Shown: one piece after another, positions 907-60,390 of the stretch
Layout of the letters: the number at the start of each line of letters is the position of its first letter
Numbering within the stretch: the stretch's first letter is position 1
NCBI GenBank assembly: GCA_022822085.1
Contig: JAJECK010000016.1
Location: forward strand, 5,786-69,785
DNA length: 64,000 bases
DNA from: Candidatus Poribacteria bacterium
Lineage (GTDB): Bacteria > Poribacteria > WGA-4E > WGA-3G
Direction: 5' to 3'
Position numbers and translations under genes: made by a program
The notes under the pieces: model-generated
Told to the model about the DNA's origin: nothing
Seen by the model: only the letters and a program-made list of their open reading frames with translations
Database searches by the model: none

Positions 907-1686
907 TTATCTGTTTGATTTTAGGGCACCCCAAGTAACTGCTAATTTATCAGTTGCCTCAACGGCAGCAATTCCCTTGATTGTCTTCTCCAAACCGTGT
1001 TCTATAATAGTCTGCAAGTCATCTTCTGTTAGAACGGATTTAAAAATTGCCACTTCATCAATTATTCCTTGGAAAAATGAACCGTTGTTCCATCTTCCAA
1101 TAGTAACAGGATCATTATTACCTGCACCTTTTCCATGACGTGTACTTGATCCTTTACGTTCACCGTTGACATATACAACCAGTTGGTCGGCATTTGCATC
1201 GCTATCATAAGTAGCTGCAAAGTGAATCCATTTTTTTGTTTCTGGTACAACAGACGATGCTCTCGGTTCCCATCCACCAATATTGACAAAAGCAGACATT
1301 TTGTTACCTTCTGCAGCTCTATCAACACGTAATAAATATTCATTATTTTTTGCGATGAGTTGCCGGTGCTCGGCTATGTTTGTGACATATAACCACGCCA
1401 TCATTGTATGCTCATCACCAAGTTGTAGATCTGGGGTTGAGTCAATTGCTACGGACTGTCCGCCATTAAATTCAAGTCCATCACCGAATTTACCATCAAC
1501 CCGTTTTGCTCCGGTAATGGTACCTGTGTTTTCTTTTCCTGATAAATCTTCAACTTCATTTCCTCCACCTTCATCAAATAACCAAACGCCGACTGCCTTC
1601 TCAGGGTCAATTTCAGCTGATGTAATATGAGGGAACATATATCCGATCAAACAAGTAATTCCAATAAGCAAGACTATTTTTCGCAT
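907..1686 (-). CDS. Secreted LamG / concanavalin-A-like lectin-fold protein
   Basis: Signal peptide MRKIVLLIGITCLIGYMFPHITSA. The body follows the LamG pattern (DLSGKENTGTITGAKRVDGKFGDGLEFNGG..., ...GIIDEVAIFKSVLTEDDL). It ends in DKLAVTWGALKSNR, the C-terminal tail shared with three other secreted proteins in this window. Confidence 0.75.
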   Translation of the reverse strand: MRKIVLLIGITCLIGYMFPHITSAEIDPEKAVGVWLFDEGGGNEVEDLSGKENTGTITGAKRVDGKFGDGLEFNGGQSVAIDSTPDLQLGDEHTMMAWLYVTNIAEHRQLIAKNNEYLLRVDRAAEGNKMSAFVNIGGWEPRASSVVPETKKWIHFAATYDSDANADQLVVYVNGERKGSSTRHGKGAGNNDPVTIGRWNNGSFFQGIIDEVAIFKSVLTEDDLQTIIEHGLEKTIKGIAAVEATDKLAVTWGALKSNR

Positions 1687-6666: not shown

Positions 6667-6751
6667 AATCAATTAACTACGAAATTTAACGAACACCGAT
6701 ATGCGAAAACGGCATGATGTATACCCTTATCAAATTATCAAATCACTTTTC

Positions 6752-6780
6752 TTGCTACATAGGTCCTCGCGTGGTATAAT
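6752..6780 (+). promoter_or_regulatory. Sigma70-type promoter with extended -10, upstream of higB
   Basis: TTGCTA (6752-6757), a 17-nt spacer, then TGG-TATAAT (-10 at 6775-6780). It lies ~130 nt upstream of the higB ATG. Confidence 0.5.
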
Positions 6781-6910
6781 ATTAACGGTTTTGAGATGCG
6801 GATCTAATAAGATGGCGTAATTTTATCTTCACAGTGTCTACGGATCCTTTACTGGTATCCTAAGAATAGATGTAGACCTTAATATAACAAATACACTACA
6901 CGACTCTTTT

Positions 6911-14338: not shown

Positions 14339-14387
14339 TTGTTGTCATATATGTACCATTTTCTCTAAAATTAGATTTAAAGTCAAC

Positions 14388-14416
14388 TTGACCACAGCAC
14401 ATATTCATAATATAAT
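14388..14416 (+). promoter_or_regulatory. Sigma70-type promoter upstream of the kinase-nucleotidyltransferase gene
   Basis: TTGACC (14388-14393), a 17-nt spacer, then TATAAT (14411-14416). It lies 70 nt upstream of the ATG at 14487. Confidence 0.5.
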
Positions 14417-14486
14417 ATATGTATCAGATTTTAAGTTATCTATAATGGCAATTCCCTATCACTAACTACAATCAATAAGGATCGCA

Positions 14487-16406
14487 ATGAAGTTATTTGT
14501 TCCAGGACGTATATGTCTCTTCGGAGAACACAGCGATTGGGCTGGTGGACACCGGCGTACAAATGCTGAGCTTGAAAAAGGATATACCATCATAACAAGC
14601 ACCAATCAAGGTGTGTATGCCGAAGTACAACCACATCCAACAAGTCTTATTTTGAAAACCAGTCTAAGCGATGGGACACGTCACGGTCCTTTTACATTAC
14701 CGATGGAACCCGCTGCTTTACTTGAAGAAGCTGAAAAAGGCGGATTTTTCAGTTATGCAGCGGGTGTTGCCTATCAAATTCTCACAAATTATCGCGTCCA
14801 AGGGTTAGAAATAGATAACTATCTAACGGACTTACCTGTGAAAAAAGGGCTTTCTTCCAGTGCAGCAATCTGTGTATTAGTTGCCCGTGCATTCAATAGA
14901 ATATACGATTTAAAGATGACAACACGTGGGGAAATGGAATGTGCATATCAAGGAGAGATAAAAACACCTTCGCGTTGTGGTAGGATGGATCAAGGATGTG
15001 CATATCAACATCCTGTCCTAATGAGTTTTGATGGGGATAACATAGATGTTAAAGAATTTAGTGTCCCGTCAGATCTATACATGGTCATTGTTGACTTAGG
15101 AACAGGTAAAGATACACGTCTGATATTAAGTCAGTTAAATCACTGTTATCCATTTGCAGAAAACGATATGCAGAAAAATGTCCAACACTATCTCGGAAAT
15201 ATAAATAAAGATATAACACAATCTGCCTTACAGGCATTGAGACATGGGAATGCGGAGGCAATTGGCAAGTTAATGACGCGAGCACAGAATCAGTTTGATG
15301 AACACCTCATCCCTGCATGTCCAACACAATTGACGGCACCCGTGCTTCACAAGGTGTTAAACTATGAACCTATACAACCTTTTATCTGGGGAGGGAAGGG
15401 AGTCGGTTCTCAAGGTGATGGTTCTGCACAATTCATTGTGAAGGATGAGGAGAGTCAGCGAAAAGTAATTGAGATTATTGAACGAGATCTGCAGATGTCC
15501 TGCCTGAAACTTGTCATTGAATCAAGTAAACAGGTGCGTAAGGCAGTTATCCCCGCCGCTGGATTTGGCACTCGCCTTTTTCCAGCATCAAAAGCGATGA
15601 AAAAGGAACTCTTTCCGGTAATAGACCATACTGGTCGTGCAAAACCTGCGATCATGGCTATCGTTGAAGAAGCAGTCAACGCAGGTATTGAGGAAGTATG
15701 TCTGATTGTTCAAAGCAGAGATATTGATCTCTTTGAATCATTTTTCAAAACACCTCCTCGTATTGAACATTATAACAAACTTAGTAAAGAAAATAAGGCG
15801 TACTGTGATTACTTAATTGAATTAGGAAGTCGTATTTCTTTTGTCACGCAAGATGTTCAGGAAGGGTTTGGTCATGCAGTGTATTGTGCAAAAGATTGGG
15901 TCAACGGAGAACCGTTCCTATTGATGTTAGGGGATCATCTCTACGGTTCCGATGAAGCATTGTCTTGTGCGAAACAGGTCATAGATGCTTACGAGCGGGT
16001 AGGTCATAGTGTTGTAGGGTTAAAGGAGACCCCGATAGATGAACTGTCAAATTTTGGGTGTGTTACAGGTGTATGGGGAGAAGAAGCATCAACACTATCT
16101 GTAACTGAGTTTTATGAAAAACCAGATCCTGAATATGCAAGGGAACACTTACATGTAGATGGGATGGACGATGATAGTTTCCTCACAGTATTCGGAATTT
16201 ATGTGATTGAACCACAGATATTTGGGTTTTTAGAACAGAATATAGAGCATAACTTCCGTGAACGTGGAGAATTTCAACTCACATCATGTTTAGATGATTT
16301 GCGGAAGGCAGATGGTTTTTCTGGTTATGTCGTGAAGGGACGACGGTTTGACATCGGTATACCAGAGGAATATCGGCAAACGGTGATAGATTTTAGAAAT
16401 GCGTAG
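14487..16406 (+). CDS. Bifunctional sugar-1-kinase (GHMP, galactokinase-like) / sugar-1-phosphate nucleotidyltransferase (GalU-like)
   Basis: The N-terminus has PGRICLFGEHSDWAG (galactokinase signature-like) and the GHMP motif PVKKGLSSSAAICV. From ~aa 350, KAVIPAAGFGTRLFPASKAMKKELFPV is the UTP-glucose-1-P uridylyltransferase-type G-x-G-T-R-x-x-P-x-x-K motif. Confidence 0.7.
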   Translation: MKLFVPGRICLFGEHSDWAGGHRRTNAELEKGYTIITSTNQGVYAEVQPHPTSLILKTSLSDGTRHGPFTLPMEPAALLEEAEKGGFFSYAAGVAYQILTNYRVQGLEIDNYLTDLPVKKGLSSSAAICVLVARAFNRIYDLKMTTRGEMECAYQGEIKTPSRCGRMDQGCAYQHPVLMSFDGDNIDVKEFSVPSDLYMVIVDLGTGKDTRLILSQLNHCYPFAENDMQKNVQHYLGNINKDITQSALQALRHGNAEAIGKLMTRAQNQFDEHLIPACPTQLTAPVLHKVLNYEPIQPFIWGGKGVGSQGDGSAQFIVKDEESQRKVIEIIERDLQMSCLKLVIESSKQVRKAVIPAAGFGTRLFPASKAMKKELFPVIDHTGRAKPAIMAIVEEAVNAGIEEVCLIVQSRDIDLFESFFKTPPRIEHYNKLSKENKAYCDYLIELGSRISFVTQDVQEGFGHAVYCAKDWVNGEPFLLMLGDHLYGSDEALSCAKQVIDAYERVGHSVVGLKETPIDELSNFGCVTGVWGEEASTLSVTEFYEKPDPEYAREHLHVDGMDDDSFLTVFGIYVIEPQIFGFLEQNIEHNFRERGEFQLTSCLDDLRKADGFSGYVVKGRRFDIGIPEEYRQTVIDFRNA

Positions 16407-26268: not shown

Positions 26269-28203
26269 TTATTTTTGTCTGGATGACAATCTGCGGACAT
26301 TTCCATCTCTGATGGTAACGTTTTGTGTGTCACAATACTCAAGAAAAGGCACTGCATATTTCCGAGATGTCTGAGCCAATTCCCGAAATTCTGCAACTGT
26401 AATTGTTTCATTGTTTTGTAGATAATTGGTTAATGACTCTTTCATGTCTTCATAGACTTTTTTGTGAATAAAATAGTTATCCGCTGCCTTGATAAACTGA
26501 CCCAGATTCAATAATGCATAAAACGTGGACTCAATCACTTGTGGTGTGTATTCTGACAGTAGCGTATTCAGTTCATTTAGACTGGGAGTGTTAATCCCAG
26601 CATTGAGAAATAAATCCTCTAACGTTTCTTTTGCAGTTGACTCTTCTTCAGAGAATTGTATTTCATGGGATGCTAATCGTAGGAGATTTCCATCCTTGAC
26701 TATCTGTTTTGTTTTTATGAGTTGGTCAGTCATTTTTTCAAAAGCCACCTCATCAAGTCCGAGTTCATGCCTTAATTGTGAGCTGTTTTGACCGGCGAGG
26801 AGCGGTTGTGATCCATGAAACTCTGATAACGCTGCTAACAATCTTTCTGTAACGTCTGTGGTGCGGGCAGCATCAGAAACAAGTGGCGTTCTGACAGATT
26901 TATCCCAACGAACAATTTTGCCTTCAGATTCCAAGGAGTTTAATATGTTCTTTACTTCAGATTGTGAATAAGGTAAATAGTAATATAGGAAGGATTCTTG
27001 GACGCATAGTGTCGGGCTGTTTTCCAATAATGCATTGACTACCTGCGTGTCATCAGCTTCTTCCCATTGTGCTAATGTGTTGATAGTTTCTTGAGTAAAC
27101 CGTTTGTGTTTGGGTGCAAATGGATTAATGACTTCTCCGCCTCCTACAGTATACTGTGCTGAAAAATCTCGTAGTATGATTCTATCTCCTCTGAAGGTCA
27201 AAATTGGCTGTTCTAAGCGAAGTTGGACTTGCACTTTATCGCCCGGGAGAATTGCTTCGTCAACCAACAGAATCAATCTACAAAAAATTTCACGTGTTCC
27301 AAGATATGCACGGAAACGCCCCCAATGTTCAAGCATCCTTGGAAATGAAGATAAAACTTGTAGCGAGATGTCAATATTGTCTGTAACATTTGAGAATTCT
27401 ATAGGACATAGAACATCGCCGCGTTGTATTTCCTGATCCGTTGTACCAGAAAGATTAAGTGCAGTTCTTTGTCCGGCATGTGCCACATTCGCGGGTTCGT
27501 TATGCACTTGTATCCCCCGAACACGGACAGTATCACCTTGTGGTAGAATTACCATCCGCTGATCTTTATTGACTGAACCACCAATAAGTGTTCCTGTAAC
27601 AACAACACCAAAACCTTCCACTTTAAATACACGATCAACATACAATCTCGGTATTCCATCATGGACTTGTGCTTCATTTGCAAGGTCTACCTGTTTGACA
27701 ATCGTCTGTTTTAAGGACTCAATTCCGTCCCCAGTGATGGAAGATACACTCACTGATGGGATACCTTCCAGTGAAGTGCCAACGAGCATCTCCTGTGTCA
27801 TTTCTGTTGCTTCTTCCAATTCATCAGGCGATGCCAAATCTGACTTTGTCATGACAAGAATGCCATTTGAGATGTTGAGCAGATCTAATATAGCTAAGTG
27901 TTCAAGTGTCTGTTCTTGTACGCCCTCTTTTGCATCAACGACAAAAAGGACAACATCCATCCCATAAGCACCCGACAACATATTACGAATAAATTTCTCA
28001 TGGCCAGGAACATCAACAATCCCCGCGCGTGAATTATCTGGTAAGTCAAAATATGCAAAACCTAACTCAATGGATAAACCGCGTTCTCGTTCCTCTTTAA
28101 GTCTGTCAGTTTGAATGCCTGTGAGAGCACCTACCAGAGCAGTTTTTCCATGGTCTACATGTCCTGCAGTGCCGATGATAAGATGTCGTCTGTCTTGCTG
28201 CAT
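26269..28203 (-). CDS. selB: Selenocysteine-specific translation elongation factor
   Basis: LIIGTAGHVDHGKTALVGALTGIQTDRLKEERERGLSIELGFAYF, DVPGHEKF, and a long winged-helix C-terminal extension. The likely start is the ATG at 28203, overlapping the lepB stop (TGATG). The track's longer start at 28284 overlaps lepB. Confidence 0.9.
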   Translation of the reverse strand: MQQDRRHLIIGTAGHVDHGKTALVGALTGIQTDRLKEERERGLSIELGFAYFDLPDNSRAGIVDVPGHEKFIRNMLSGAYGMDVVLFVVDAKEGVQEQTLEHLAILDLLNISNGILVMTKSDLASPDELEEATEMTQEMLVGTSLEGIPSVSVSSITGDGIESLKQTIVKQVDLANEAQVHDGIPRLYVDRVFKVEGFGVVVTGTLIGGSVNKDQRMVILPQGDTVRVRGIQVHNEPANVAHAGQRTALNLSGTTDQEIQRGDVLCPIEFSNVTDNIDISLQVLSSFPRMLEHWGRFRAYLGTREIFCRLILLVDEAILPGDKVQVQLRLEQPILTFRGDRIILRDFSAQYTVGGGEVINPFAPKHKRFTQETINTLAQWEEADDTQVVNALLENSPTLCVQESFLYYYLPYSQSEVKNILNSLESEGKIVRWDKSVRTPLVSDAARTTDVTERLLAALSEFHGSQPLLAGQNSSQLRHELGLDEVAFEKMTDQLIKTKQIVKDGNLLRLASHEIQFSEEESTAKETLEDLFLNAGINTPSLNELNTLLSEYTPQVIESTFYALLNLGQFIKAADNYFIHKKVYEDMKESLTNYLQNNETITVAEFRELAQTSRKYAVPFLEYCDTQNVTIRDGNVRRLSSRQK

Positions 28204-28982
28204 CAGTTGAGTCCATCTTCTGTGTGGATGAGTTTGCCTATACGGTTGAAGCGTATATTGCGGATCATCTTCCACACCTCCCATATTTTGGGTTTAGCTT
28301 GTCCAAATGACCAATATACCATGAACGCTTGCCCTTTGATACGATCAATGTGCACAGGTCCCCAAGTTCTGCTGTCACTGCTTTGATTTCGGTTATCTCC
28401 CATCGCAAAGACATGTTCTTCTGGTACAACAAACGGCTTGCCATCGGGAAATTGGCGTTTAAACTGATTCTCTGTCAAGGTATAATCCGCGTATAACTGA
28501 TTATCCCTCATATAGTCTTCCGTTTTACTAAACGGTGGGAAATCACCCCGTCTGCCATAATGACCACCTACGTACTTAGTATAACCACTATCGTTAACCT
28601 CTATACCGTTGACATAGAGTTTCCTGCCTTCCGTGTGAACAGTATCACCTTCTACTGCCACAATACGTTTGATGAAGTTGCGATCAGTTTCATGGGGAGG
28701 GATGAATACAAAAACGTCACCACGCGCAGGTTTATGAAACTCAAAGACTCTAATGTCCGTACCAGGAATCTTGAAACCGTAAATAAACTTGCAAACCAGA
28801 ATCCTATCTCCGATGAGCAGAGTATCCTCCATTGAACCTGATGGGATTTTAAATGCTTCGACAACAAAAGGTCGTATGAATCCAAAAACAAGTATGAGTG
28901 CAACTGCAATGACTTGGGTATATTCCCAGACGACCGTTTGGCGGAATTTCTGCCATTTTGTTAATTGAACATCAGTGGTCAT
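28203..28982 (-). CDS. lepB: Signal peptidase I
   Basis: One N-terminal TM segment. Catalytic-Ser box IPSGSMEDTL, the Lys box FIKRIVAVEGD, and GDNRNQSSDSR. Confidence 0.9.
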   Translation of the reverse strand: MTTDVQLTKWQKFRQTVVWEYTQVIAVALILVFGFIRPFVVEAFKIPSGSMEDTLLIGDRILVCKFIYGFKIPGTDIRVFEFHKPARGDVFVFIPPHETDRNFIKRIVAVEGDTVHTEGRKLYVNGIEVNDSGYTKYVGGHYGRRGDFPPFSKTEDYMRDNQLYADYTLTENQFKRQFPDGKPFVVPEEHVFAMGDNRNQSSDSRTWGPVHIDRIKGQAFMVYWSFGQAKPKIWEVWKMIRNIRFNRIGKLIHTEDGLN

Positions 28983-29073
28983 GTAGTTTGAAAACCGCTA
29001 TTATTAGACGGTAGTCCTTTCTTATTTTTAAAGTTATATTTTCAAATTCTTAACGGATACGTTTTCCTATACG

Positions 29074-29101
29074 ATTAGAACGAATATCATCATCATTGTC
29101 A
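29074..29101 (-). promoter_or_regulatory. Candidate sigma70-type promoter for lepB-selB (minus strand), inside the palindrome TTGTCAATTGACAA
   Basis: On the minus strand: TTGACA (29101-29096), a 16-nt spacer, then TCTAAT (29079-29074). It lies ~90 nt upstream of the lepB start. Confidence 0.35.
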
Positions 29102-29281
29102 ATTGACAAGTATATCATAAAACTGCGTTATAACAGTGTCCCTCAAGAATTACTTACCTTAGACAACCAAGAATCCAACTCCATTGTAGGGTATCGCTGA
29201 TAATTTGACACCTATGATGCGTTTACAAAACGACCTACCGCATGTAGTGGAATACAAAATTGAGACCTATAGAATCAAGAA

Positions 29282-30844
29282 TCAATCAAGACCTTTCAAT
29301 GCACTTATTATGCTGGAAGTAGCGACCCTTGAATACGCAGAATCCAGAGATTTCCATCCAATCGTTCCGTCTGTCTTAATGATATAGACAGAAGGTCGTG
29401 CAAGATTGGAATTATTTTGAGATACAACGTTGTAAGCTCCGATTGCATCTTTGCCGGTATCAGATAGCACAGTGAACGTGAGATTATTATCGTCGGTTGT
29501 CGATTTAGTGGCGGTGATGTTATCGACGCTGATAGCAATGAGCGATCCGCCTGCTGCTATAATATTATCATAGTTGTCTTGCAACTCTCCGAGTTGCGTT
29601 TGACACCACGGTCACCAGCCACCTCGGAAAAACACAATTACTATTTTACTGCTACCGATGCTGTCCGAAAGAGAGTGTGTGTTTCCATCACCATCTGGCA
29701 AAGAGAATGTAGGTGCTTTGACACCGATTCTTAAGCCTTCACCTGCTGCCAACGGTTCAGGTGCTGGTGCTGATTCGGTTGTGAAGGTGATACTCACATC
29801 GGTTTCGTTTCCAGTGCTGTCACGGACAGTACCCGATATTTGATATGTAGTACCGTGGTTGAGTTCTTGGCCAGCATTTGCTGTAAGGGTGATGGTATTC
29901 CCCGAAATCGTTGCTGTCCAACCAACATCTGATCCGTCTTTGTACAACTTCAGAACTCCACTGCTAATCGGTTCGCTGAAGGTAACCGTGATGCCATTTT
30001 CTGAAACTGTTTCCGGGTCAACGTCTTTAGCACCGTCAGCAGTACTACTGGTTGTGACATTAGGCGAGGTATTATCTTCTGCCATAACGTTATAGTTCAG
30101 TGTGTGGCTTCCGCTACCATTTGTCCACGAAATTGTCAGCGTAAGCGAACCGACAGGGAAAGGACCGCTTATAGTTCGTGAGTTACCAGAACCTGAGACT
30201 GTCCCAAAACTCACTGTTACGGTACCTGGGTCGTTATCAAATGTGATTGTGATACTATCGTTTTCCGATATGTCCCCACTTGCGGGTGACGCACTGACAA
30301 ATGCTGCATCAGGTATTTGGGGTACAACAGGGGGACTCTCAACGTTATAGTTCAGTGTATGGCTTCCGCTGCCATTTGGCCACGAAATTACCAAGGCAAG
30401 CGAACCAACAGAGAAAGGACCGCTTATAGTCCGTGAGTTACCAGAACCTGAGACTGTCCCAGAACTCACTGTTACGTCACCTGGGTCGTTGTCAAATGTG
30501 ATTGTGATACTATCGTTTTCCTTTATATTTCCGCTTGCGGGTGACGCACTGACAAATGCTGCGTCGGGTATTTGGGGTTCATCAGGGGGATCCTCTTCCA
30601 TCGTTTCAGGCTCATCAGAAGACTCCTCTTCTGAATCATCAGTTTCAGTAGAGGGGTCTTCCTTTGTACCATCGGTCTCAGTAGAGGGATCCTTCATCGT
30701 ACCTACTGATGTAACTGTGGAATCCTCTGGCGGAGTTTCATCGTCGGGCATCATAACAGGTTTCATCACCTGATTTTGCATTTCATCACATCCAGCAGCA
30801 AATATAATTAAGAATGTGATTGATATTATAGACAAAATTTTCAT
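29282..30844 (-). CDS. Lipoprotein selenoprotein: Ig-like repeats plus a C-terminal AhpC/TSA-redoxin (thioredoxin-fold) domain with a U-x-x-C active site; in-frame UGA at 29614..29612
   Basis: Track ORFs 29612..30892 and 29282..29584 share one frame (29614-29584=30) and are separated only by TGA. Read-through gives ..APTFSLPDGDGNTHSLSDSIGSSKIVIVFFRGGW-U-PWCQTQLGELQDNYDNIIAAGGSLIAISVD..LTFTVLSDTGKDAIGAYNV... The stop would otherwise cut the fold at its CxxC-type motif. A SECIS-like hairpin lies 14 nt downstream, and selB/selC are adjacent. The likely start is the Met at 30844 (MKILSIISITFLIIFAAGC lipobox). Confidence 0.8.
29581..29597 (-). promoter_or_regulatory. Candidate bacterial SECIS hairpin
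   Basis: Minus-strand RNA GCAACUC-GGA-GAGUUGC forms a perfect 7-bp stem. It starts 14 nt after the UGA, and its G-containing apical loop lies ~24 nt from the UGA. Confidence 0.6.
30086..30580 (-). repeat. Tandem 255-bp (85-aa) duplication inside the selenoprotein gene, encoding two Ig-like modules
   Basis: AACGTTATAGTTCAGTGT... starts at both 30086 and 30341. The protein copies are PQIPDAAFVSASPASG[ND]I[KS]ENDSITITFDNDPG.VTVS.GTVSGSGNSRTISGPF.VGSL.L.ISW.NGSGSHTLNYNV. Confidence 0.9.
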
Positions 30845-30872
30845 TACATATTCCCTATATATACGCTTTATT

Positions 30873-31576
30873 TTAGCGGATTTTTTTACCAATTCTATTA
30901 AAACGGATGTTTGTCACTAACTTCCAAACTTCCCATAACTTCATCGGTCGATTTGCAGTAGACCACAAGACCATGAATGCTTGTCCTTTGATATCGTCCA
31001 CCTCAACAGGTCCCCAAGTTCGACTATCACTACTCAGGTCTCGGTTATCTCCCATAGCGAATACCATTCCCTTTGGCACTATAAACGGCTTATCTTCAGG
31101 AAATTTATGTCTAAGAAGATATTCAGAACTACGAAAGGGTGGAAAATCCTGCCTATATTTATCGGTTGGTAGATGTTTTGTATAGTTTCCTTCCTCAACC
31201 TTGTCCCCATTTACATATAGATATTTACCCTTTGTATAGACTGTATCGCCTTCAACAGCAACAATCCGTTTGATAAAGTGAAGTTCTCTCTCATGCGGTG
31301 GGATAAAAACAAACACATCTCCACGAGCAGGTTTATGAAAATCGAAAACCTTTATATCAGTACCGGGGATTTTAAATCCATACATAAACTTACACACCAA
31401 AATCCGATCACCGATAAGGAGTGTATCTTCCATTGAACCTGATGGAATCAGATACGCATCAACAATAAATGGACGAAAAAACCCAAAAACGAATATTAGA
31501 ACGAAAACAATCCCTTAATCTGATGCAATTTTGTTAATATTGTTCTGGTTTGTTGTTGTATTTGATCGAATTTCAT
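30873..31576 (-). pseudogene. lepB: Second signal peptidase I copy, interrupted by a 1-nt frameshift near 31512-31515 (pseudogene or homopolymer sequencing error)
   Basis: Track ORF 30873..31433 starts at the Met inside the catalytic box. Upstream in the same frame I read GIVFVLIFVFGFFRPFIVDAYLIPSGSM, preceded by TAA. A different frame carries MKFDQIQQQTRTILTKLHQIKG from the ATG at 31576. Together these align with the lepB1 N-terminus (..VIAVALILVFGFIRPFVVEAFKIPSGSMEDTLLIGDRILVCKF). Confidence 0.7.
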
Positions 31577-31605
31577 AATGATACCAAAGGATGAGTAGAA
31601 TCCAC

Positions 31606-33228
31606 CTAAAATCTTTTAATTTCACCCCATAAGGTAGTAACTTTGTCTTGAGGTTTTATACTATATCTAATTTGTGAATTAGTTATTAATTTTGGATCTC
31701 CTATTGCTGGATGATCACACCAAGCTGTATCTAAACCACTATCAATAACAATTCTCAATACTTTCGCATCAAATGGTATAAAAAAACTGATTTTCTCATA
31801 ATTGTCTTTACCAGTTAACAGCTCAGATTTATACATATTTTCTCCATCAATTTCAAATGTAAATTTACAACTACCACCTACAAAGCAACTTTTATTCTGA
31901 TGTTTATCTATCTCAAAATCTCTATCATTAGTTATTCCAATATACCCTTCAAAAGCAATGTAGTTATTCCCTACTAAATTATATTTAAGAGATGAGACTT
32001 TGGGATGATCGGGTGGAGATAGTGAAATACCTCTTTCAAAAGTAGTATTTCTCATTACAATAGGATTCCCATTATTGGTTTTATTATCTGAAATAGCCTG
32101 CCATCCCCAACCATTTTTATATTCACCTGAAGAATTAAACGGTTTCAATCCATTTTCATCAGGTAAAGTCTTTTTACCTAAATTAATGTTAAGATATACA
32201 ACATTTTTTGAAGTGTCTTCTTTAATCGTTGTTGGTTCTAAATCTTCCTCAAGTCCCAAATCTTCATTTTTATTGCGGACAGAAGTTTGTTCATCAACAA
32301 CTTCCTCTTTAAATCTTGGGGGCATAGTAAAATCGTATCTATGGAAAGTAAAAGCACCTAAAGTATCCATAATCATAAAGGTTAGAAGGTTTTTTCCTAT
32401 GAGTTTACTTCTACTTATTCTCATATCTACATTAGTATTTTTGCCATCGATATATTGCCAACCTATTACCAATATATTACTGTCCATAACGACAATTTGG
32501 TATAGATCGTTTTGGCTCGTAATGTTAATTTTGATACTGATTATATTATCTTCTATTTCTTCAACATTAAATACTTGATTTACCTTCGGATGTTGCCATT
32601 TTATTATTCTGTCAGCATTAAAAAAATAGTGTTTATCTAACCATCTTGCTTCATACTCTAATAGTTCTTGACCTGATCCCATTATTGTATTCGTTGTTCC
32701 AGTATGATACAAACTAAATGTATGCCCTATTTCATGTGCAATTAAACTAACCATAGATGTATTTGCATTTTCCGCAACTATACACGAACCACCAAAATTA
32801 AAATTATATACAGGCCATCCAACACCCCATTGACAACATCCTTGATTCAAATTAATTGTGTCAATACCACCAATAATAAAAACATGTACATTCTTTTGAT
32901 CTTCAAATTTTTCTGGTATTTCTGTCTTTAAATTATCCCAAGTGTTAGATTGGTATATATGAGATGGACGGTTAGTATTAATTACATTTACTCTTATATT
33001 CCCGTTATGTTCTCTTTCAAATTTGAAAGTCTTATTTCCAAAACCGTTTCTAGACATTTCTTCCATATATAATTGCTGAACATCATTCATCCATCCTCTA
33101 ATTTTATTGAATGGGACATTCTGCACATTATTTGGCTTAACATAAATTGTTTTTACTAAATAATTGGCATTAGCAGATATTGATACTAATATTAAGAGTA
33201 TAGTTAAAAGTAACCTAAATTTTTTCAT
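31606..33228 (-). CDS. Secreted zinc metalloprotease-like protein (HExxH...H) with a C-terminal beta-sandwich (carbohydrate-binding-like) region
   Basis: Signal peptide MKKFRLLLTILLILVSISANA. HEIGHTFSLYH is metzincin-like spacing with Ser in place of Gly. The gene is visibly more AT-rich than its neighbours, and the protein is rich in N/I/K. It ends in DKVTTLWGEIKRF. Confidence 0.55.
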   Translation of the reverse strand: MKKFRLLLTILLILVSISANANYLVKTIYVKPNNVQNVPFNKIRGWMNDVQQLYMEEMSRNGFGNKTFKFEREHNGNIRVNVINTNRPSHIYQSNTWDNLKTEIPEKFEDQKNVHVFIIGGIDTINLNQGCCQWGVGWPVYNFNFGGSCIVAENANTSMVSLIAHEIGHTFSLYHTGTTNTIMGSGQELLEYEARWLDKHYFFNADRIIKWQHPKVNQVFNVEEIEDNIISIKINITSQNDLYQIVVMDSNILVIGWQYIDGKNTNVDMRISRSKLIGKNLLTFMIMDTLGAFTFHRYDFTMPPRFKEEVVDEQTSVRNKNEDLGLEEDLEPTTIKEDTSKNVVYLNINLGKKTLPDENGLKPFNSSGEYKNGWGWQAISDNKTNNGNPIVMRNTTFERGISLSPPDHPKVSSLKYNLVGNNYIAFEGYIGITNDRDFEIDKHQNKSCFVGGSCKFTFEIDGENMYKSELLTGKDNYEKISFFIPFDAKVLRIVIDSGLDTAWCDHPAIGDPKLITNSQIRYSIKPQDKVTTLWGEIKRF

Positions 33229-33317
33229 ATTTTCTATCTGAATTCTTTTTTCTAATATTCGATATCAACACATTTTTCATAATTCTAACGTGAATTTGAT
33301 AATTAAATGCAATATCC

Positions 33318-33406
33318 GTTGTAGGTCAGGTTTAGGCACGAAACCTAACTATATGCATTAGATTTTGGGCTGCATGTTGGAATTCGTGCCATACGCCAAC
33401 CTACAA
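33318..33406. repeat. Long imperfect inverted repeat containing the dispersed AGGCACGAAA / TTCGTGCC motif in both arms
   Basis: TTGTAGGT (33319-33326) pairs with ACCTACAA (33399-33406). GGCACGAA (33335-33342) pairs with TTCGTGCC (33383-33390). There is also a local hairpin AGGTTT-AGGCACG-AAACCT at 33328-33346. Confidence 0.6.
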
Positions 33407-33457
33407 TCTACTTTCTTTCGCTCATATCAAACTCAGGTTAATTCTATACTGGCTCAC

Positions 33458-34897
33458 CTATCTCCGTTTCAAATCTGCCCATCGGACCAATCGTTTTCCA
33501 TGATGGGATACAGATAGAGGGTCTTCTTTCTTCTGTTCCTGCTCATTTTGTTCCTGTTCAACTACCTCTTGTTCAACTTCTTCCTGCTCATCTACTTGGT
33601 CAGCTACATCACGTTTTCCCATGCCTTCAGCAGGACTATTTGGTTGCAATGTAAAATCACCAGCATCTGCATTCACAAACAGAGGGTCTTCATCTATGTT
33701 GTCCTTATAACTTAAAAATTTCTGTCTGCCATCAGGATCAATTCCCATAAGACCATTTTTAATATTGCATGAATGAATGGATACAGATCCCTGGGCAAAT
33801 ACTTCAGCGTATGTCCCATCAGAAGTATTATCCCACACGATTGAATTGGTCATGTTGAGATGACCTCGGTCAGCGACATAGATACCACCGCCCCTATTTC
33901 CTGCAGAGTTTTGTGTAATTGTACAATACTTGACATACGCATTGCCAAATCTTGTAAGATCCCATATACCTCCGCCATTCTCCAAAGCGGTATTGTTTGC
34001 AATCACACAATCCGTGGCATATAATGACGAAGTTGGACTACAGAATATACCACCACCATCTTCCGCTGTATTCTTATCTATAATTGAATTTTTAATCGTT
34101 ATTCTGGAATAGTCTTGACATATTAAACCACCGTCAGAGTTTTCAGTGATGTGACTATTTGTTATATCCGCTCCAGCAAAAGAAAGGAGACTTATACCTC
34201 GTCTACCGTTATTTGATACAGTACAATTAACTATATCTGCACTTTCAAGCACGCAGGAAATCCCATTACTTGTGTTGTCAGAAATTGCACAATTCTTTAT
34301 AGTCGGTCTTACCAAGGTTTCAACCATATTAACATTATCCTGAATAACGCCATCCCGTTTAAGGGTTAAAAGTACATCAATTCCTCCAATGAGTATACCT
34401 ACACCAATATTACTTGAGATTTTGGTATCTGTAATGTTTAGAGCGGAATTAAGACTATATATCCCAGATGTCAGATTATCTTTAACCACACAATTTTTAA
34501 TCGTAGGTGAAGCAGAAATAAGAGTAATTGCTCCACCAAATACATGCTTCCCATTTTTAACTGTGAATCCGTCTAATACCGATGCATCTGTTTCATCATT
34601 TTGGAAACTGAATCCTCTGGTTTCTGTCTTCTCCTCACAGTCGATTATCGTTGTCTCAGCACCATTCCGGGATTTAAGAATTATCTCTTTTCCCTTAAAA
34701 TCAAGGTTCACATTTCCTTCGCCTTTGTAAATTCCATCATCTACCAAAACTGTGTCACCATTTTGAGCGGTATCAATACCGGCTTGAATTGTCGGTTGAT
34801 CTGCAGGCACATTGATCGTAGCTGCAAAGGTAAGTGGACTTAATGTAGAAAAACATACAATAATGATTGAATAGATAAGCCTTCTAATTTGTTCCAT
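33458..34897 (-). CDS. Secreted right-handed parallel beta-helix repeat protein (paralogue 1)
   Basis: Signal peptide ...LSPLTFA. Repeated ..N..GGGI../..NT...GG.. beta-helix rungs. The N-terminal ~80 aa are nearly identical to the next gene. An acidic insertion (EQEEVEQEVVEQEQNEQEQKKE) precedes the tail GKRLVRWADLKRR. Confidence 0.7.
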   Translation of the reverse strand: MEQIRRLIYSIIIVCFSTLSPLTFAATINVPADQPTIQAGIDTAQNGDTVLVDDGIYKGEGNVNLDFKGKEIILKSRNGAETTIIDCEEKTETRGFSFQNDETDASVLDGFTVKNGKHVFGGAITLISASPTIKNCVVKDNLTSGIYSLNSALNITDTKISSNIGVGILIGGIDVLLTLKRDGVIQDNVNMVETLVRPTIKNCAISDNTSNGISCVLESADIVNCTVSNNGRRGISLLSFAGADITNSHITENSDGGLICQDYSRITIKNSIIDKNTAEDGGGIFCSPTSSLYATDCVIANNTALENGGGIWDLTRFGNAYVKYCTITQNSAGNRGGGIYVADRGHLNMTNSIVWDNTSDGTYAEVFAQGSVSIHSCNIKNGLMGIDPDGRQKFLSYKDNIDEDPLFVNADAGDFTLQPNSPAEGMGKRDVADQVDEQEEVEQEVVEQEQNEQEQKKEDPLSVSHHGKRLVRWADLKRR

Positions 34898-35043
34898 GAT
34901 TTTTCTCCTATGGATAAGTATATTCTACTGTTTTTATTATTAAAACTACAAAGTGGATTATGTCTAAACCCATAACTGAGTTCCATCATAAGATTTGTTG
35001 GGACAATACAGCTATTTATTCATTGAAAGTTCCAAATGTTATG

Positions 35044-36417
35044 TTATTTACGTTTTAAATCTGCCCACAAGACAATTCGTTTTCCAGGTTGTGATACAGC
35101 AAATGGACCAATCCGAGCAGTTTGTTCACGCGCACCCATTCCTTCGGCTGGACTATTTGGCTGAAGTGTAAAATCACCAGCGTCTGTATTAACAAACAGA
35201 GGGTCTTCATCAATGTTTTTCACATAGATAAACTTGTCCCCATCAGCAACCAGGCCAATCCCATCAAGCCCATCACCAATATCACATGATTTAATGACTA
35301 TACCCCTACCCAGAACGAAAACTTCTGCATGCGAAACATTTGATGAATTTCCCCAAACTATAGAATCGGTTAAGTTAAAGCGATTTCTGGGGATAATAGG
35401 ATCTCTGTGGGCAATAGCAGAAATCCCACCACCAAGAGTGCCAGCTGTGTTTTCCGTAATTGTACAACGCTTGATATTTACCGCTCCTAAGATCGCCTCA
35501 CACCGAATCCCTCCACCAGAGTATATTGCCCTATTTTGTGCAATTACACAGTCAGTAACCCAAATCTCTGAGTTATAATTACAGCGAATTCCGCCACCAT
35601 TTCTGGCTGTATTCCGTACAATGATCGAATTCTCAATTTTCAAAACAGTATCTTCCCAAGCTTCTAAGCCGCTACCAGCATTGTGTTCTATTCGACAATT
35701 GGTAATAGGTTTGTTTGTGCGGGCATAAGAGTAAAAAATACCGCGAGCACTGTTGTGAGAAACAACACACTTATCAATAATCGGATCTACATCGTGCATA
35801 CAGTAAACTCCATTCCCTGTATTCTCAGTAATCGTGCTATTTTTAAGTGTGGGTTGTGCTGGAGTTTCTTTCAAGACAACGCCTTTATGTTCGGTATTTC
35901 CCATAATGAAAATACCGCCACCAAAATTGCGTGTAATTGTGCAGTCTGTTATGATTAGATCGGAATTATGGCAAAAGATTCCACCACCACCGCCACCCAT
36001 AGATTGGTTACTGTCAATCGTACAGTTTTTAATTGTCGGTGAAGCATGCACAAGGTAGATTCCACCGCCAAATCTCTGGTTCCCATTTTTAATTGTAAAT
36101 CCATCTAACACCGATTCAACTGTTTCATCATTTTGAAAACTAAATCCTCTGGTTTCAAGTTTTTTCTCACAGTCAATAATCGTTGCCTGAGCACCATTGC
36201 GAGATTTAAGAGTTATTCGTTTTCCCTTAAAATCCAGATTCACATTTCCTTCGCCTTTGTAGATACCATCATCTACTAATACGGTGTCACTATTTTGAGC
36301 GGTGTCAATGCCAGCTTGAATTGTCGGTTGATCAGCAGGGACATTGATCGTTGCTGCAAAAGTAAGCGGACTGAAAAAGGAAACCAATACGATGCATAAT
36401 GTATTGATATACTTCAT
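35044..36417 (-). CDS. Secreted right-handed parallel beta-helix repeat protein (paralogue 2)
   Basis: MKYINTLCIVLVSFFSPLTFAATINVPADQPTIQAGIDTAQN... The start is taken at the Met at 36417, because the track start at 36525 overlaps lepA. PbH1-like rungs. It ends in GKRIVLWADLKRK. Confidence 0.7.
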   Translation of the reverse strand: MKYINTLCIVLVSFFSPLTFAATINVPADQPTIQAGIDTAQNSDTVLVDDGIYKGEGNVNLDFKGKRITLKSRNGAQATIIDCEKKLETRGFSFQNDETVESVLDGFTIKNGNQRFGGGIYLVHASPTIKNCTIDSNQSMGGGGGGIFCHNSDLIITDCTITRNFGGGIFIMGNTEHKGVVLKETPAQPTLKNSTITENTGNGVYCMHDVDPIIDKCVVSHNSARGIFYSYARTNKPITNCRIEHNAGSGLEAWEDTVLKIENSIIVRNTARNGGGIRCNYNSEIWVTDCVIAQNRAIYSGGGIRCEAILGAVNIKRCTITENTAGTLGGGISAIAHRDPIIPRNRFNLTDSIVWGNSSNVSHAEVFVLGRGIVIKSCDIGDGLDGIGLVADGDKFIYVKNIDEDPLFVNTDAGDFTLQPNSPAEGMGAREQTARIGPFAVSQPGKRIVLWADLKRK

Positions 36418-36466
36418 GATTGTCCTCCTATAAAATGGATTAGTCCTTATATCTGATATATGTATG

Positions 36467-38272
36467 TTACTCATCCGTTGCAAGCATTGCTGTGAATGCT
36501 TCTTGCGGTACATCAACATTCCCAATCTGTTTGAGACGCTTTTTACCTTCCTTCTGCCTTTCTAACAATTTCCGTTTTCTTGTAATATCACCACCGTAGC
36601 ATTTTGCAGTCACATTTTTTCGTAGGGGTCTGACCGACTCACGCGCAACAATCTTAGTCCCAATCGCAGCTTGAATTGGTATTTCAAACATCTGTCTGGG
36701 TATCAACTCTTTCAGTTTAGACACTAAACTTTTCCCACGGTCTTCAGCCATTTCGCGTGGCAGGATAGTTGATAGCGCGTCTACAGGTTTTCCCATCAAA
36801 AGCACATCTAACTTAACCAGTTTCTCTGGTCTATATTCCCCGATATCATATTCAAGTGAAGCATATCCGCGGGTGAGCGACTTTAATTTTGGGTAAAAAT
36901 CTACAAGCATCTCACTAAGCGGTAAATCATAAAGGAGTTGCACACGGCTAACATCTAATTGGTTCATCCGTTTATATACACCCCGTCGCTTCTGACAAAG
37001 TTCCATCGCATTTCCGATATATTCCCGCGGAACGATTATATCAATATTGACATACGGTTCTTCTATTCGTTCTATGTTTTGGACTTCAGGCAGATGTGCC
37101 GGATTGTCCACTAACACATCATCACCTGATTTGAGAAAAACCCGATACATCACACTGGGGGCAGTCCGAACAAGCGAGAGCTCAAATTCCCTTTCAAGAC
37201 GTTCATGGACAATTTCCATGTGTAGCAGCCCTAAGAAGCCGCATCGAAACCCGAACCCAAGGGCAACAGATGTCTCCGGTTCAAAAGTGAAAGAGGAATC
37301 ATTGAGACGTAGTTTTTCCAGTGCTTCCCTAAGTGCATGAAATTGGTTTGTATCCGCAGGATACAGACCACTAAATACAAGCGGCTTTATCTCTTGATAG
37401 CCTGGAAGTGGTGTGGACGTAGGATGCAGATGATGCGTAATCGTATCGCCAATTTTAGCATTGTTAATGTCGCGAATACCTGCAATTAGATATCCGACCG
37501 CACCTGTTTTGAGTTCCGTAGTGGGCTGCATCTGTGGCGTAAAAATACCGACTTCTTCAACTTCATAAGACCGTTTGGTCTGCATGAGTTGAATCTTATC
37601 ACCCGGGGCGATGCTACCGTCAAAAATACGAGTGTAAATAATCACACCACGATAATTATTGTAAATAGAATCAAGCACAAGTGCTTTTAAAGGGGCTGCA
37701 GAGTCGCCAGCAGGTGCGGGGATCCGTTGGACGATTGACTCTAAAATTGCTGGGATGCCCGTCCCTGCTTTCGCACTGACAAGAAGGGCATCCGCTGCAG
37801 GTAGACCTACCACCTCCTCTATCTGACGTTTGACTTCATCAGGTTGCGCAGCTGGCAGGTCAATTTTGTTAATTACAGGGATAATTTCCAGTTCATTTTC
37901 TATTGCAAGATAGGCGTTTGCCAAGGTTTGCGCTTCAACGCCTTGTGCTGCATCAACAATAAGGATAGCACCTTCACACGCCGCAAGACTTCGGGACACC
38001 TCATAAGTGAAATCTACATGTCCTGGTGTATCAATCAAATTGAGTTCATAGTCATTTTCATCCGCAGCACGATAATGGAGTTTGACCGCGGTAGCTTTTA
38101 TAGTGATACCGCGTTCCCGTTCCAAATCCATTAAATCCAGCACTTGTTCACGCATCTCCCTTTCAGCAAGCGTATTTGTCCGTTCTAAGAGGCGATCACT
38201 TAATGTGCTTTTGCCGTGGTCAATGTGTCCTAAAATACAGAAATTGCGAATATTATGAAGTGTAACTGACAT
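36467..38272 (-). CDS. lepA: Translation elongation factor 4
   Basis: [36 protein letters not shown], and a LepA-specific C-terminal domain. Size is 601 aa. Confidence 0.95.
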
Positions 38273-40470: not shown

Positions 40471-41577
40471 ATGCAAACAGACACCAAAATACTAACCGAA
40501 GAAGAAATCAGAAGGTTATTTAGAACGGATATTGGACATTTTGAAGATAAAAGTGCGAGATTACTTTTTAAACAGACAGAACACTTACGAGGTTTAGTGA
40601 TGTTCCTTGTAAGTAACATTGCAGAACATCTTGATTTCTCACAGGCAAAGGTAGAAAATCGGAGTTATATTGACAATTCATTACGAGATTTGATGTCGGA
40701 TATCGTGTTTTCTGTCCCGTTCCGAGACGACACTCAAACAGACGATCTGACAATCTACATCCTCATAGAACATCAGTCCACTGTAGATCGAATGATGGGT
40801 TTTCGGTTTCTCTCCTATATGTGTCAAATATGGAGAGATCAGTTACATGCGTTAGATAACGCGAAAGTGCCATTAAACCAGCAACGCTTGCGTCCGATAC
40901 TCCCGATTGTCTTTTATACTGGAGAAAGACCTTGGAAAATCCCGCTAACACTCAATGCAGTGATGGATCTACCTGAGATGATGACACCTTTCGTGCCAAC
41001 ATTTGAGACCCTCTTTTTCGGGGTCAAGGATACCGATATAGACGAGTTCGGACAACACAATCACCCTTTCGGATGGTTGATGGCGGTCACACAAAAGGCT
41101 GAATCGGATGATAAGTCGCTTGAGCAAACATTGGCAGAAGTTCTCAAAAGACTGGACACGTTATCACCCGAAGATGAAGCACTACACACTCACGCTATGG
41201 TCTATCTCTCTCATCTGATAATAGGTAAAAGACCAGATTCCGAGAATGACCATTTGATACAACTCATCATGACACATAATAAAGATACGGAGGTTGAAAG
41301 TATTATTATGACTGGTGCAGAAGCTCTTATACAACAAGGAAAGAAACAAGGTCTTGAACAAGGTCTTGAACAAGGTCTTGAACAAGGTAAAATAGACGAA
41401 AAACAGGCAGCCGTGCTTAGATTGATGCGGCTACGTTTTACGGAAGTTTCAGAAGCGGTTGTCAATGAGATAAATAGAATAGAAGACTTCTCGCTTCTTG
41501 ACACGCTTTTTGAAGAAGTTTTCAATGCTGAAACTATAGAGGACATTGTTCTGCCGAACAAAAATAACGGTGCATAA
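40471..41577 (+). CDS. Rpn-family recombination-promoting nuclease / putative transposase (PD-(D/E)XK, YhgA-like) with a DUF4351-like C-terminus
   Basis: ..LRDLMSDIVFSVPFRDD....TIYILIEHQSTVDRMMGFRFLSYMCQIWRD.. is the core of YhgA-like proteins. The C-terminal AAVLRLMRLRFTEVSEAVVNEINRIEDFSLLDTLFEE resembles DUF4351. A (QGLE)x3 insertion is encoded by a 12-bp tandem repeat at 41347-41388. Confidence 0.7.
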   Translation: MQTDTKILTEEEIRRLFRTDIGHFEDKSARLLFKQTEHLRGLVMFLVSNIAEHLDFSQAKVENRSYIDNSLRDLMSDIVFSVPFRDDTQTDDLTIYILIEHQSTVDRMMGFRFLSYMCQIWRDQLHALDNAKVPLNQQRLRPILPIVFYTGERPWKIPLTLNAVMDLPEMMTPFVPTFETLFFGVKDTDIDEFGQHNHPFGWLMAVTQKAESDDKSLEQTLAEVLKRLDTLSPEDEALHTHAMVYLSHLIIGKRPDSENDHLIQLIMTHNKDTEVESIIMTGAEALIQQGKKQGLEQGLEQGLEQGKIDEKQAAVLRLMRLRFTEVSEAVVNEINRIEDFSLLDTLFEEVFNAETIEDIVLPNKNNGA

Positions 41578-53884: not shown

Positions 53885-54092
53885 ATTTGTCTATTTTGAG
53901 TATTTGTAACGTTTTTCTATAAACATTGCGTCCCTACGGGACTGAAGAACTGGACTAAAAATCAAAATCCTTAAGTTGACACCCGCTGAATGCCAAAAAG
54001 GCATTCATAGCGTTGATTTATGGGTTTCGTGCCTCTACCCGACCCACAATATTAGAATGGACTATCCACTACTCGTCAAGGGAGTGTATAAT

Positions 54093-56042: not shown

Positions 56043-56099
56043 GTCAAATCATCTGATTTTCTCCAGATTTGAGAACTATAATAGAAGGAGATGAACATC

Positions 56100-58166: not shown

Positions 58167-58221
58167 GTCAAATCATCTGATTTTTTCAGATTTGAGAACT
58201 ATAATAGAAGGAGATGGACAA

Positions 58222-60333: not shown

Positions 60334-60390
60334 GTCAAGATCATCTGATATTTTCCAGATTTGAAACAATAATAAAAGGAGATGGACAAA

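Follow-up and report, generated by a model that had tools for sequence, protein, structure and literature searches.

A short C-terminal tag on exported proteins of unrelated folds in Candidatus Poribacteria

The 64-kb stretch of contig JAJECK010000016.1 from a Candidatus Poribacteria bacterium analysed here (the window) encodes four proteins with signal peptides, namely a LamG protein, a metzincin-like protease and two right-handed beta-helix proteins, all of which end in the same short peptide, termed the tail in the following. This tail is a modular, protein-level and phylum-wide C-terminal tag of exported proteins, which is unpacked against the folded part of its carriers (the passenger), contains no transmembrane segment and was previously undescribed. 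The first-pass annotation of this DNA had seen in it a candidate sorting or anchoring tag, a proposal that is supported by the enrichment of tails among exported proteins, by the variety of their passengers and by the lack of a match to any existing sorting-signal model; its function is proposed below from its anatomy and from analogy. Poribacteria are dominant, uncultured symbionts of marine sponges, with free-living members as well; their genomes are noted for glycan degradation and for the numerous 'eukaryote-like' proteins that are exported.

The tail in the window and in other genomes

The four open reading frames (ORFs), all located on the - strand, and their C-terminal sequences were recovered exactly with the coordinates and letters of the first-pass annotation. 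No other protein of the window has the tail, as had also been claimed: only four of the 258 stop-to-stop segments of at least 60 amino acids (aa) in the six reading frames match K-x4-W-[GA]-x-[LIV]-K-x(0-4), and the looser pattern W[GAS].[LIVMF][KR].{0,6}$ retrieves the same four segments and none extra. By chance, 0.0011 tails per window would be expected analytically, and 2000 residue shuffles gave a mean of 0.0015 with a maximum of one, compared with the four seen. The carriers had been regarded as four proteins of unrelated folds; this holds for LamG protein, protease and beta-helix, but the two beta-helix proteins are tandem paralogues with 58% identity, so that the window contains three independent carriers and not four. 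Similarly, the core of the motif of about 13 aa described at first is present, but the module begins further upstream, with V(-10), [ED](-9) and P/A(-8) counted from the tryptophan (W), and all four tails of the window reveal V or I at position -10.

Two scans with DNA patterns, whose counts are lower bounds and refer to the matches listed, uncovered the tail about 250 times. Scan 1 searched one genome each of 185,579 species (GTDB genomes) for K-L-x-T-T-W-[GA]-x-[LIMF]-K and gave 137 matches in at least 118 genome stretches, 130 of them in frame with a stop codon 1-8 codons past the final K. Scan 2 searched metagenomes for V-[DE]-P-x2-K-x4-W-[GA]-x-[LIMF]-K with the stop codon unconstrained, and 121 of its at least 130 matches lie next to a stop (0-9 codons). 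Taken together, the two scans placed at least 251 of 267 matches next to a stop codon.

According to their labels, 105 of the 118 loci from scan 1 belong to Poribacteria, seven to unlabelled 'uncultured bacterium' metagenome-assembled genomes (MAGs), one to a sponge 'Pseudomonadota' bin and five to other taxa. The seven MAGs and the bin revealed genuine tails in all cases except L084, an apparent chance match, and the five matches in other taxa, being isolated and without every other feature, look like chance. When the scan 1 pattern was applied to viral contigs, four of 22 matches were near a stop, which is the proportion that chance predicts. The contigs of scan 2 display a GC content from 0.35 to 0.67, and exact-sequence look-ups of four high-GC metagenome carriers led to NCBI proteins named Candidatus Poribacteria bacterium. 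Searching a 5.8-billion-protein index with a tail profile and 43-aa segments gave 27 short fragments, as the word index favours short proteins, and every named match came from Poribacteria. A profile search of 1.84 billion representatives returned 2863 matches at E <= 1e-3, a count that was left unused because the profile had kept columns of the LamG end; about half of its top matches were giant multi-LamG proteins without the tail. Carriers were found in sponge-associated and in free-living Poribacteria. Judged by these sequence matches, the tag is phylum-wide and, among the matches listed in the two scans, phylum-specific.

Tandem arrays of tail genes are common, with four copies in the 64-kb window and up to six in a single 8-kb block. 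The latter was found on an unlabelled MAG contig (L051, CAYYPK010000004.1, GC 0.64), the passengers of which are 28-32% identical to those of labelled Poribacteria, and this contig probably represents a divergent, free-living lineage of the phylum. One tail protein lies on a phage-like contig: positions 8614-9552 of L011 (IMG/VR contig IMGVR_UViG_3300032360_000003, GC 0.34) encode a 312-aa signal-peptide protein ending in LKIEPKNKLVTTWGEMKKWK, together with a T4-type DNA polymerase, a UvsX recombinase and a DnaB helicase identified by PHROGs. This may be a phage protein that uses the tail pathway of its host. On a second IMG/VR contig, L023, a 370-aa protein ends in NVGARGKLPTTWGEMKRQ.

Anatomy, carriers and predicted structure

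The carrier set analysed here comprises 150 tail-bearing ORFs called in the genome loci and the window. Their tails are non-hydrophobic modules of 17-20 aa following the motif [LT]-[AP]-V-[ED]-P-x-[GD]-K-L-[ATS]-T-T-W-[GA]-x-[LI]-K with 1-6 further residues, and alignment on the W gave [LTF](-12), [AP](-11), V(-10, 95%), [ED](-9), P/A(-8, 91%), [GDN](-6), K(-5), L(-4), [ATS](-3), T(-2), T(-1), [GA](+1), [LI](+3) and K(+4). V-10, K-5, W0 and K+4 are each conserved in at least 95% of the 150 tails, K-5, W0 and K+4 being fixed in the pattern of scan 1. Residues outside the respective search pattern are still conserved, as is evident from V-10 and P/A-8 in scan 1 and from L-4 (76%) and T-1 (60%) in scan 2, where the other positions fixed by scan 1 showed 51% for T-2, 76% for G+1 and 24% for A+1 among the matches listed. 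Behind K(+4), zero to eight residues (mode three) follow in the aligned tails, mostly basic or polar and rich in Arg, usually with one basic residue, and the end including K(+4) carries about +1.7 net charge. The last residue is mostly R, K, Q or N, with R as the commonest (48/150), and F, Y or W is found at this position in 20 of the 150. Members of the beta-helix family show a version of their own, V-[ST]-x-x-G-K-[RQK]-L-[VI]-x-W-[AG]-[DE]-L-K-R-[RK], in which the subfamily ends with K-R-[RK]; common to all versions is a core made up of V-10, K-5, W0 and K+4 together with a small residue at +1 and an aliphatic one at +3. The length of the linker ahead of the tail varies among the carriers.

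As had been noted at first, no hydrophobic segment follows the tail, and no membrane-spanning stretch lies within it, the longest uncharged run being the eight residues L-A-T-T-W-G-x-L between two conserved lysines. The consensus tail has a helical hydrophobic moment of 0.10 and a negative mean hydrophobicity, and the tails of the window have moments of 0.05-0.56. An amphipathic in-plane membrane anchor of the PBP5 or MinD type was rejected, since a moment of 0.10 leaves no clear hydrophobic face.

Conserved positions of the tail use every synonymous codon, and third-position identity at identical four-fold codons is 0.29. This randomisation of synonymous codons means that the peptide, rather than an element of DNA or RNA, is under selection, and a DNA-level element is ruled out by codon usage. 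Stop codons of tail genes (TAA 81, TAG 47, TGA 22) differ from those of other ORFs (250, 179 and 179, respectively; p = 7e-4) in the 118 genome loci and the window, but this depletion of TGA may merely reflect a difference between real genes and spurious ORFs.

The carriers are proteins destined for export. Using a home-made, crude and permissive signal-peptide predictor, a signal-peptide-like N-terminus was called in 145 of 150 tail ORFs versus 233 of 608 non-tail ORFs (Fisher p = 3e-44), in line with the enrichment that the first-pass annotation had anticipated. Their N-termini are classical Sec signal peptides with AxA sites, and convincing lipoboxes are essentially absent. The DUF1080-like tail proteins of one cluster (L095 and L138) start with MNRRNLFIAICG…, which could be a twin-arginine signal; if it is real, at least one carrier family would be exported in the folded state.

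After removal of signal peptide and tail, BLAST sorted the carriers into 36 clusters, among which at least 12 Pfam families are represented, and many representatives have no Pfam match; a larger shared C-terminal domain is therefore not the explanation for the tail. Half of all carriers have Laminin_G_3 passengers. The others include PD40 and Kelch propellers, CBM9, CBM_4_9, 3-keto-disaccharide hydrolase (DUF1080), PA14, F5/8 type C (discoidin), lamin-tail domain (LTD) and DUF3108-like proteins, a metzincin-like protease with NPCBM, and right-handed beta-helices. Most carriers are small (median 266 aa), single-domain and glycan-binding proteins, and within one domain family some members have the tail and others lack it. 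Among the larger ones, two related LTD proteins of 968 aa (L063, positions 4278-7185) and >1378 aa (L102) reveal a terminal domain of about 90 aa (…VELSHFRPT…VVITWSTQSELNNAGFFIKRS…YYYQIEDVSLDG…) followed by the tail. No NCBIfam model matches this domain, and a check of the penultimate domain of the 968-aa protein for a T9SS (type IX secretion system) sorting domain found none.

AlphaFold2 (AF2) models of the LamG protein and of beta-helix 2 were calculated with family alignments and reached a pLDDT (predicted local distance difference test) of 85, with the core above 90, and of 87, respectively, being confident as far as the domain extends. In the LamG model, residues 240-248 have a pLDDT below 50 and residues 244-257 form a low-confidence helix unpacked on the domain, and in beta-helix 2 residues 432-457 have a pLDDT of 33-40. 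Both models thus predict a tail that follows a disordered linker and does not pack against its passenger. The closest PDB folds to the beta-helix 2 model are Pel9A (1ru4), the PL6 chondroitinase B (7o78) and the alginate epimerase AlgE4.

In rare proteins, the tail motif lies away from the extreme C-terminus. Two of the few such matches in scan 2, the metagenomic proteins L150 (SDBU01061888.1; >777 aa, with NHL repeats) and L218 (SDBT01004693.1; >1014 aa), contain it 4 and 18 residues upstream of a domain that begins with QNYPNPFNP[ED]TW[IM]PY. NCBIfam identified this domain as TIGR04183, the T9SS type A sorting domain, with 24.9 and 32.4 bits against a cutoff of 23, and about 95-110 further residues come after the motif. 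In organisms with a T9SS, the sorting domain is removed after outer-membrane transport. If this also took place in the composites, their new C-terminus would lie a few residues past W-G-x-L-K, as in tail-only proteins; the analogy suggests that the tail acts on the mature C-terminus after export, most likely as a docking or anchoring label, and that a role as the signal for translocation across the outer membrane is less likely. With a local hidden Markov model built from seven such domains and run on the fetched loci, 17 proteins with a T9SS-type sorting domain were found, four of them in labelled Poribacteria loci (L028 twice, L056 and L067) and none in the window. The proteins of L028, L056 and L067 have the sorting domain without the tail, and genuine sorting domains in the phylum score 24.9-40.1 bits. 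The WD40, BNR and TPR proteins of the window revealed no T9SS sorting domain, and none of the T9SS machinery (PorV, PorU, SprA and others) is encoded there. Kamke et al. (2014; PMC3909097) described TIGR04183-like domains in poribacterial single-cell genomes and found no T9SS genes.

Window genes and their neighbourhood

Positions of tail genes, tail modules and flanking genes in the window
Feature	Position	Strand	Description
Exported LamG protein, 259 aa	907..1686	-	Sec signal peptide and Laminin_G_3, then helix, linker and tail
Tail module of LamG protein	910..969	-	AAVEATDKLAVTWGALKSNR, residues 240-259
Distal lepB	28203..28982	-	Signal peptidase I paralogue; context
Proximal lepB	about 30873..31576	-	Signal peptidase I, Peptidase_S26; frameshifted near 31512-31520
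Exported metzincin-like zinc protease, 540 aa	31606..33228	-	HEIGHTFSLYH; C-terminal NPCBM carbohydrate-binding module, then tail
Tail module of protease	31609..31659	-	IKPQDKVTTLWGEIKRF
Beta-helix protein 1, exported, 479 aa	33458..34897	-	Pel9A/NosD-like right-handed beta-helix
Tail module of beta-helix 1	33461..33511	-	VSHHGKRLVRWADLKRR
Acidic low-complexity insertion in beta-helix 1 linker, 23 aa	33542..33610	-	DVADQVDEQEEVEQEVVEQEQNE; from alignment with beta-helix 2
Beta-helix protein 2, exported, 457 aa	35044..36417	-	From ATG at 36417; polysaccharide lyase- or epimerase-like
Tail module of beta-helix 2	35047..35097	-	VSQPGKRIVLWADLKRK
lepA (EF4)	36467..38272	-	Next gene upstream of the beta-helix pair; context only, outside the tag

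Residues 74-224 of the LamG protein match PF13385 (Laminin_G_3) with 2.4e-25. All its orthologues in Poribacteria have kept the tail, and homologues of the LamG carrier down to 52% identity have ...V-[SE]-P-x-x-K-L-[AT]-T-T-W-[GA]-x-L-K-x-x-R as their extreme C-terminus, those with an organism name all being Candidatus Poribacteria. An exact-sequence look-up of the LamG protein of the window retrieved a 2.8-kb contig and nothing else. The protease matches NPCBM (PF08305, 4.3e-15) with residues 371-514 and shows weak metallopeptidase matches around its HExxH motif; in the orthologue fragment P0146, the tail is kept as IRPQDKVATLWGEIKRF. The acidic insertion in front of an intact tail that had been noticed in beta-helix 1 was verified by comparison with its paralogue, and acidic linker insertions of the same kind recur in the orthologues P0314, P0328, P0346 and P0356, always followed by an intact tail. 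Of 120 listed members of the beta-helix family, 113 match the tail pattern and the other seven end in a near-variant (W-V, or a longer extension). When beta-helix homologues from other phyla with known tags in the place of the tail were sought as evidence of tag swapping, the 120 best homologues, all bearing the tail or a near-variant, looked like Poribacteria, and every named one is.

The carrier trio of protease and beta-helix pair had been described as flanked by lepB paralogues; two lepB genes indeed lie downstream, but the upstream neighbour is lepA. The N-terminus of the proximal lepB, MKFDQIQQQTRTILTKLHQIKG, is encoded in another frame than the rest of the protein, IVFVLIFVFGFFRPFIVDAYLIPSGSMEDTLL..., and its orthologues in L142 and L144 are intact, the copy in the window being either a pseudogene or an assembly error. 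Proximal and distal LepB form two orthologous groups with 62-72% identity between and 72-89% within them, so that the duplication is old, and both copies have been retained. The order lepA, beta-helix, beta-helix, lepB, lepB, selB, lipA, dapB and BNR protein is kept in two other Poribacteria contigs (28203-38272 of the window, 8144-16608 of L142 and 8147-21401 of L144), with 61-76% identity between the beta-helix orthologues. The protease/NPCBM gene is a variable insert in this order, being absent from L142 and present only as an NPCBM remnant in L144. Since lepA and lepB are commonly adjacent in bacteria, the lepB neighbourhood is a weak lead to a partner of the tail.

A Big_5/CopC ORF at 29612-30892 (- strand) contains at its end only positions 1-35 of an AhpC/TSA domain and looks truncated or fused; in the equivalent region of L144, Big_5 (732 aa) and AhpC (100 aa) are encoded by separate genes. 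Near the beta-helix/protease cluster, a YhgA-like transposase is located at 40471-41577 (+ strand), and in L144 a DDE transposase (13215-15039) lies between the beta-helix pair and the NPCBM remnant, which makes this part of the locus a rearrangement hotspot. Further away, four WD40 proteins of about 700 aa with signal-peptide-like N-termini are encoded in tandem (53976-62604, + strand); none of them has the tail or a T9SS sorting domain.

For the partner search, the 568 non-tail ORFs of the 118 genome loci were clustered. Recurring neighbours belong only to generic families, namely TPR, oxidoreductase, PhyH, WD40 and PQQ-propeller proteins, and several of the recurrences represent the same orthologous locus. 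No recurrent membrane protease was found beside the tail genes of these loci.

Possible roles of the tail and relation to known sorting signals

By analogy with described systems, we consider the tail to be a short linear motif through which one common component of the envelope docks, anchors or delivers its cargo, the probable site being the cell surface, and give this reading a probability of about one half. Sec export and removal of the signal peptide would leave the tail hanging free from the folded passenger, and a shared envelope component, either a receptor or a processing enzyme, could then read it as a short linear motif and hold or deliver the cargo at the cell envelope or surface. 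This cargo consists mostly of small glycan-binding modules, with some polysaccharide- and protein-degrading enzymes. Tentatively, the tail might further be the address label of an undescribed surface display or sorting pathway specific to Poribacteria, and thereby represent a new class among the C-terminal sorting signals of bacteria, read by an envelope receptor or transpeptidase. Such a label, a possibility put forward with similar reserve, would be a short soluble peptide without membrane segment, lipid or folded domain, and could be combined with a T9SS-type domain delivering it to the surface.

Several observations weigh against a motif read in the envelope. The signal-peptide predictor over-calls, with 38% of the background ORFs (233/608) being positive, and no gene recurs beside the tail genes, as the best clusters, generic TPR or oxidoreductase families, reach 9 of 118 loci. 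The transmembrane segment that defines all known sortase-type signals is absent from the tail, and the argument from the composite architecture rests on two metagenomic proteins only. Finally, the phylum specificity holds among the matches listed, so that absence outside Poribacteria is not proven.

One specific version of this explanation names the receptor class: much as dockerin binds cohesin, the tail would dock into an extracellular or periplasmic scaffold, plugging non-covalently into exported repeat proteins (WD40, Kelch, TPR) and building arrays of lectins and enzymes. We regard this as rather unlikely. An unstructured, linker-tethered short linear motif on mostly small, single-domain glycan-binding cargo, as in cellulosome components, would suit it, as would the four tandem signal-peptide WD40 proteins and several TPR proteins encoded in the window and the rank of TPR and WD40 among the commonest neighbours of tail genes; however, this association is weak (at most 9/118 loci), both families are common throughout the phylum, and Kelch and PD40 propellers carry the tail themselves and hence are cargo. 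Dispensing with a protein receptor, the tail might also be a physical anchor, i.e., a cationic Trp peptide that binds anionic lipopolysaccharide or the membrane interface directly, as do the short amphipathic anchors at the C-termini of PBP5 or MinD. The charge of about +1.7 at its end, the invariant W and the short helix that AF2 draws over W-[GA]-x-L-K fit this idea, which the very low hydrophobic moment (consensus 0.10) and the negative mean hydrophobicity nevertheless make quite improbable, and the sequence-specific conservation of V-E-P, K-L, T-T and W-G exceeds what physicochemistry would need.

Little more can be said for a signal of stability or maturation, such as a C-terminal degron or a propeptide read by a periplasmic protease, for which a tail-specific protease or the second LepB would be candidates. 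The analogy is RP4 TraF, a LepB homologue that trims the C-terminus of a pilin; Poribacteria have conserved two groups of LepB orthologues, the proximal lepB is located directly downstream of tail genes in the conserved order lepA, beta-helix, beta-helix, lepB, lepB, and V-E-P resembles signature or cleavage motifs of other sorting signals. Against this improbable reading, adjacency of lepA and lepB is an ordinary housekeeping arrangement, most tail genes are far from lepB, and the final residues are variable, polar or basic, unlike the ligands of PDZ-type tail-specific proteases. Highly improbable is a nascent-chain pausing motif at the end of the ORF like SecM or VemP, by which fast-folding, beta-rich passengers would keep their last strands inside the exit tunnel until Sec has taken up the signal peptide. 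It would explain the strict association with Sec signal peptides and with the C-terminus, the independence of fold, the lack of a linked partner gene and the conserved length of about 17-20 aa with its richness in W, G, P and K/R, and would agree with the depletion of TGA stops; yet arrest peptides are not known to occur on functional cargo proteins by the hundred, the distance from motif to stop varies from zero to nine residues, and in the composites the chain continues for about 95-110 residues, so that the motif is not at the end of translation. Moreover, one carrier family may have a Tat-type signal peptide, and the stop-codon bias may reflect real versus spurious ORFs. That there is no protein tag at all, but chance, paralogy of a shared C-terminal domain or a DNA/RNA element at gene ends, is refuted: the two beta-helix genes are paralogous and half of the sampled carriers are LamG proteins, but an expectation of 0.001 per window, 36 unrelated passenger clusters, randomised synonymous sites and 251 of 267 matches abutting a stop argue against it.

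Being shared by a large share of the exported proteins, the tag provides a handle on how Poribacteria deploy them, as the set of cargo proteins can be listed from sequence alone, and it predicts a common receptor or processing enzyme. Diagnostic tryptic peptides derived from the tail would be the 9-mers L[AT]TTWGxLK, and a tail profile would consistently label proteins that are now named 'LamG domain-containing' or 'hypothetical'. If true, a C-terminal signal that lacks a transmembrane segment and is able to precede a T9SS sorting domain would be an addition to the known sorting architectures, and if the tail is an address label, it would bear on how uncultured sponge symbionts deploy their exported glycan-binding repertoire.

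As had been expected at first, the tail does not match an existing sorting-signal model: NCBIfam 20.0 gave no sorting-signal match on the four window proteins at E <= 1 and no match on five isolated tails at E <= 10, and no Pfam model covers the tail. The searchable literature revealed no paper with the tail strings or discussing such a tag in Poribacteria, and no relevant paper joining Poribacteria with LamG, exosortase, T9SS or T2SS (type II secretion system). Haft listed seven attributes of small C-terminal sorting domains (bioRxiv 10.1101/2023.06.07.544157), five of which are displayed by the tail, namely its place at the C-terminus, its occurrence in multiple copies, an invariant signature and carriers with signal peptides and with unrelated passengers; the terminal basic cluster is present in part only, and the hydrophobic transmembrane segment is lacking. 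Like PEP-CTERM/exosortase, LPXTG, GlyGly-CTERM, MYXO-CTERM and PGF-CTERM signals, the tail is located at the extreme C-terminus of signal-peptide proteins with unrelated passengers, probably occurs in many copies per genome and is restricted to a lineage. It also shares with them a short Glu-Pro signature at its start (V-E-P versus P-E-P), basic residues at its end and largely surface- or glycan-related cargo, whereas the transmembrane helix, the usual Arg cluster and a match in NCBIfam set PEP-CTERM and sortase-type signals apart from it.

Like the T9SS type A sorting domain, the tail marks the C-terminus of cargo exported by Sec, namely LamG, CBM, propeller, protease and beta-helix proteins, and both occur in the same phylum. 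The statement of the first-pass annotation that the tail is far too short for such a domain was borne out, as its 17-20 aa, unstructured in AF2, contrast with a folded beta-sandwich of 70-100 aa and tails gave no match to TIGR04183 (cutoff 23 bits); the two are separate modules that can be combined. The outer-membrane beta-signal read by BamA is also a short C-terminal motif on exported proteins of diderms, with a species-specific flavour (PMC1634882). Beta-signals, however, end in an aromatic residue and are found on beta-barrels, whereas the passengers of the tail are soluble folds. Finally, cargo-loading peptides of encapsulins and encapsulation peptides of microcompartments are cytoplasmic and come without signal peptides, unlike the exported carriers of the tail, but resemble it as short terminal peptides (10-20 aa) on a flexible linker, with unrelated cargo and no membrane segment. 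These peptides dock into a shared protein partner.

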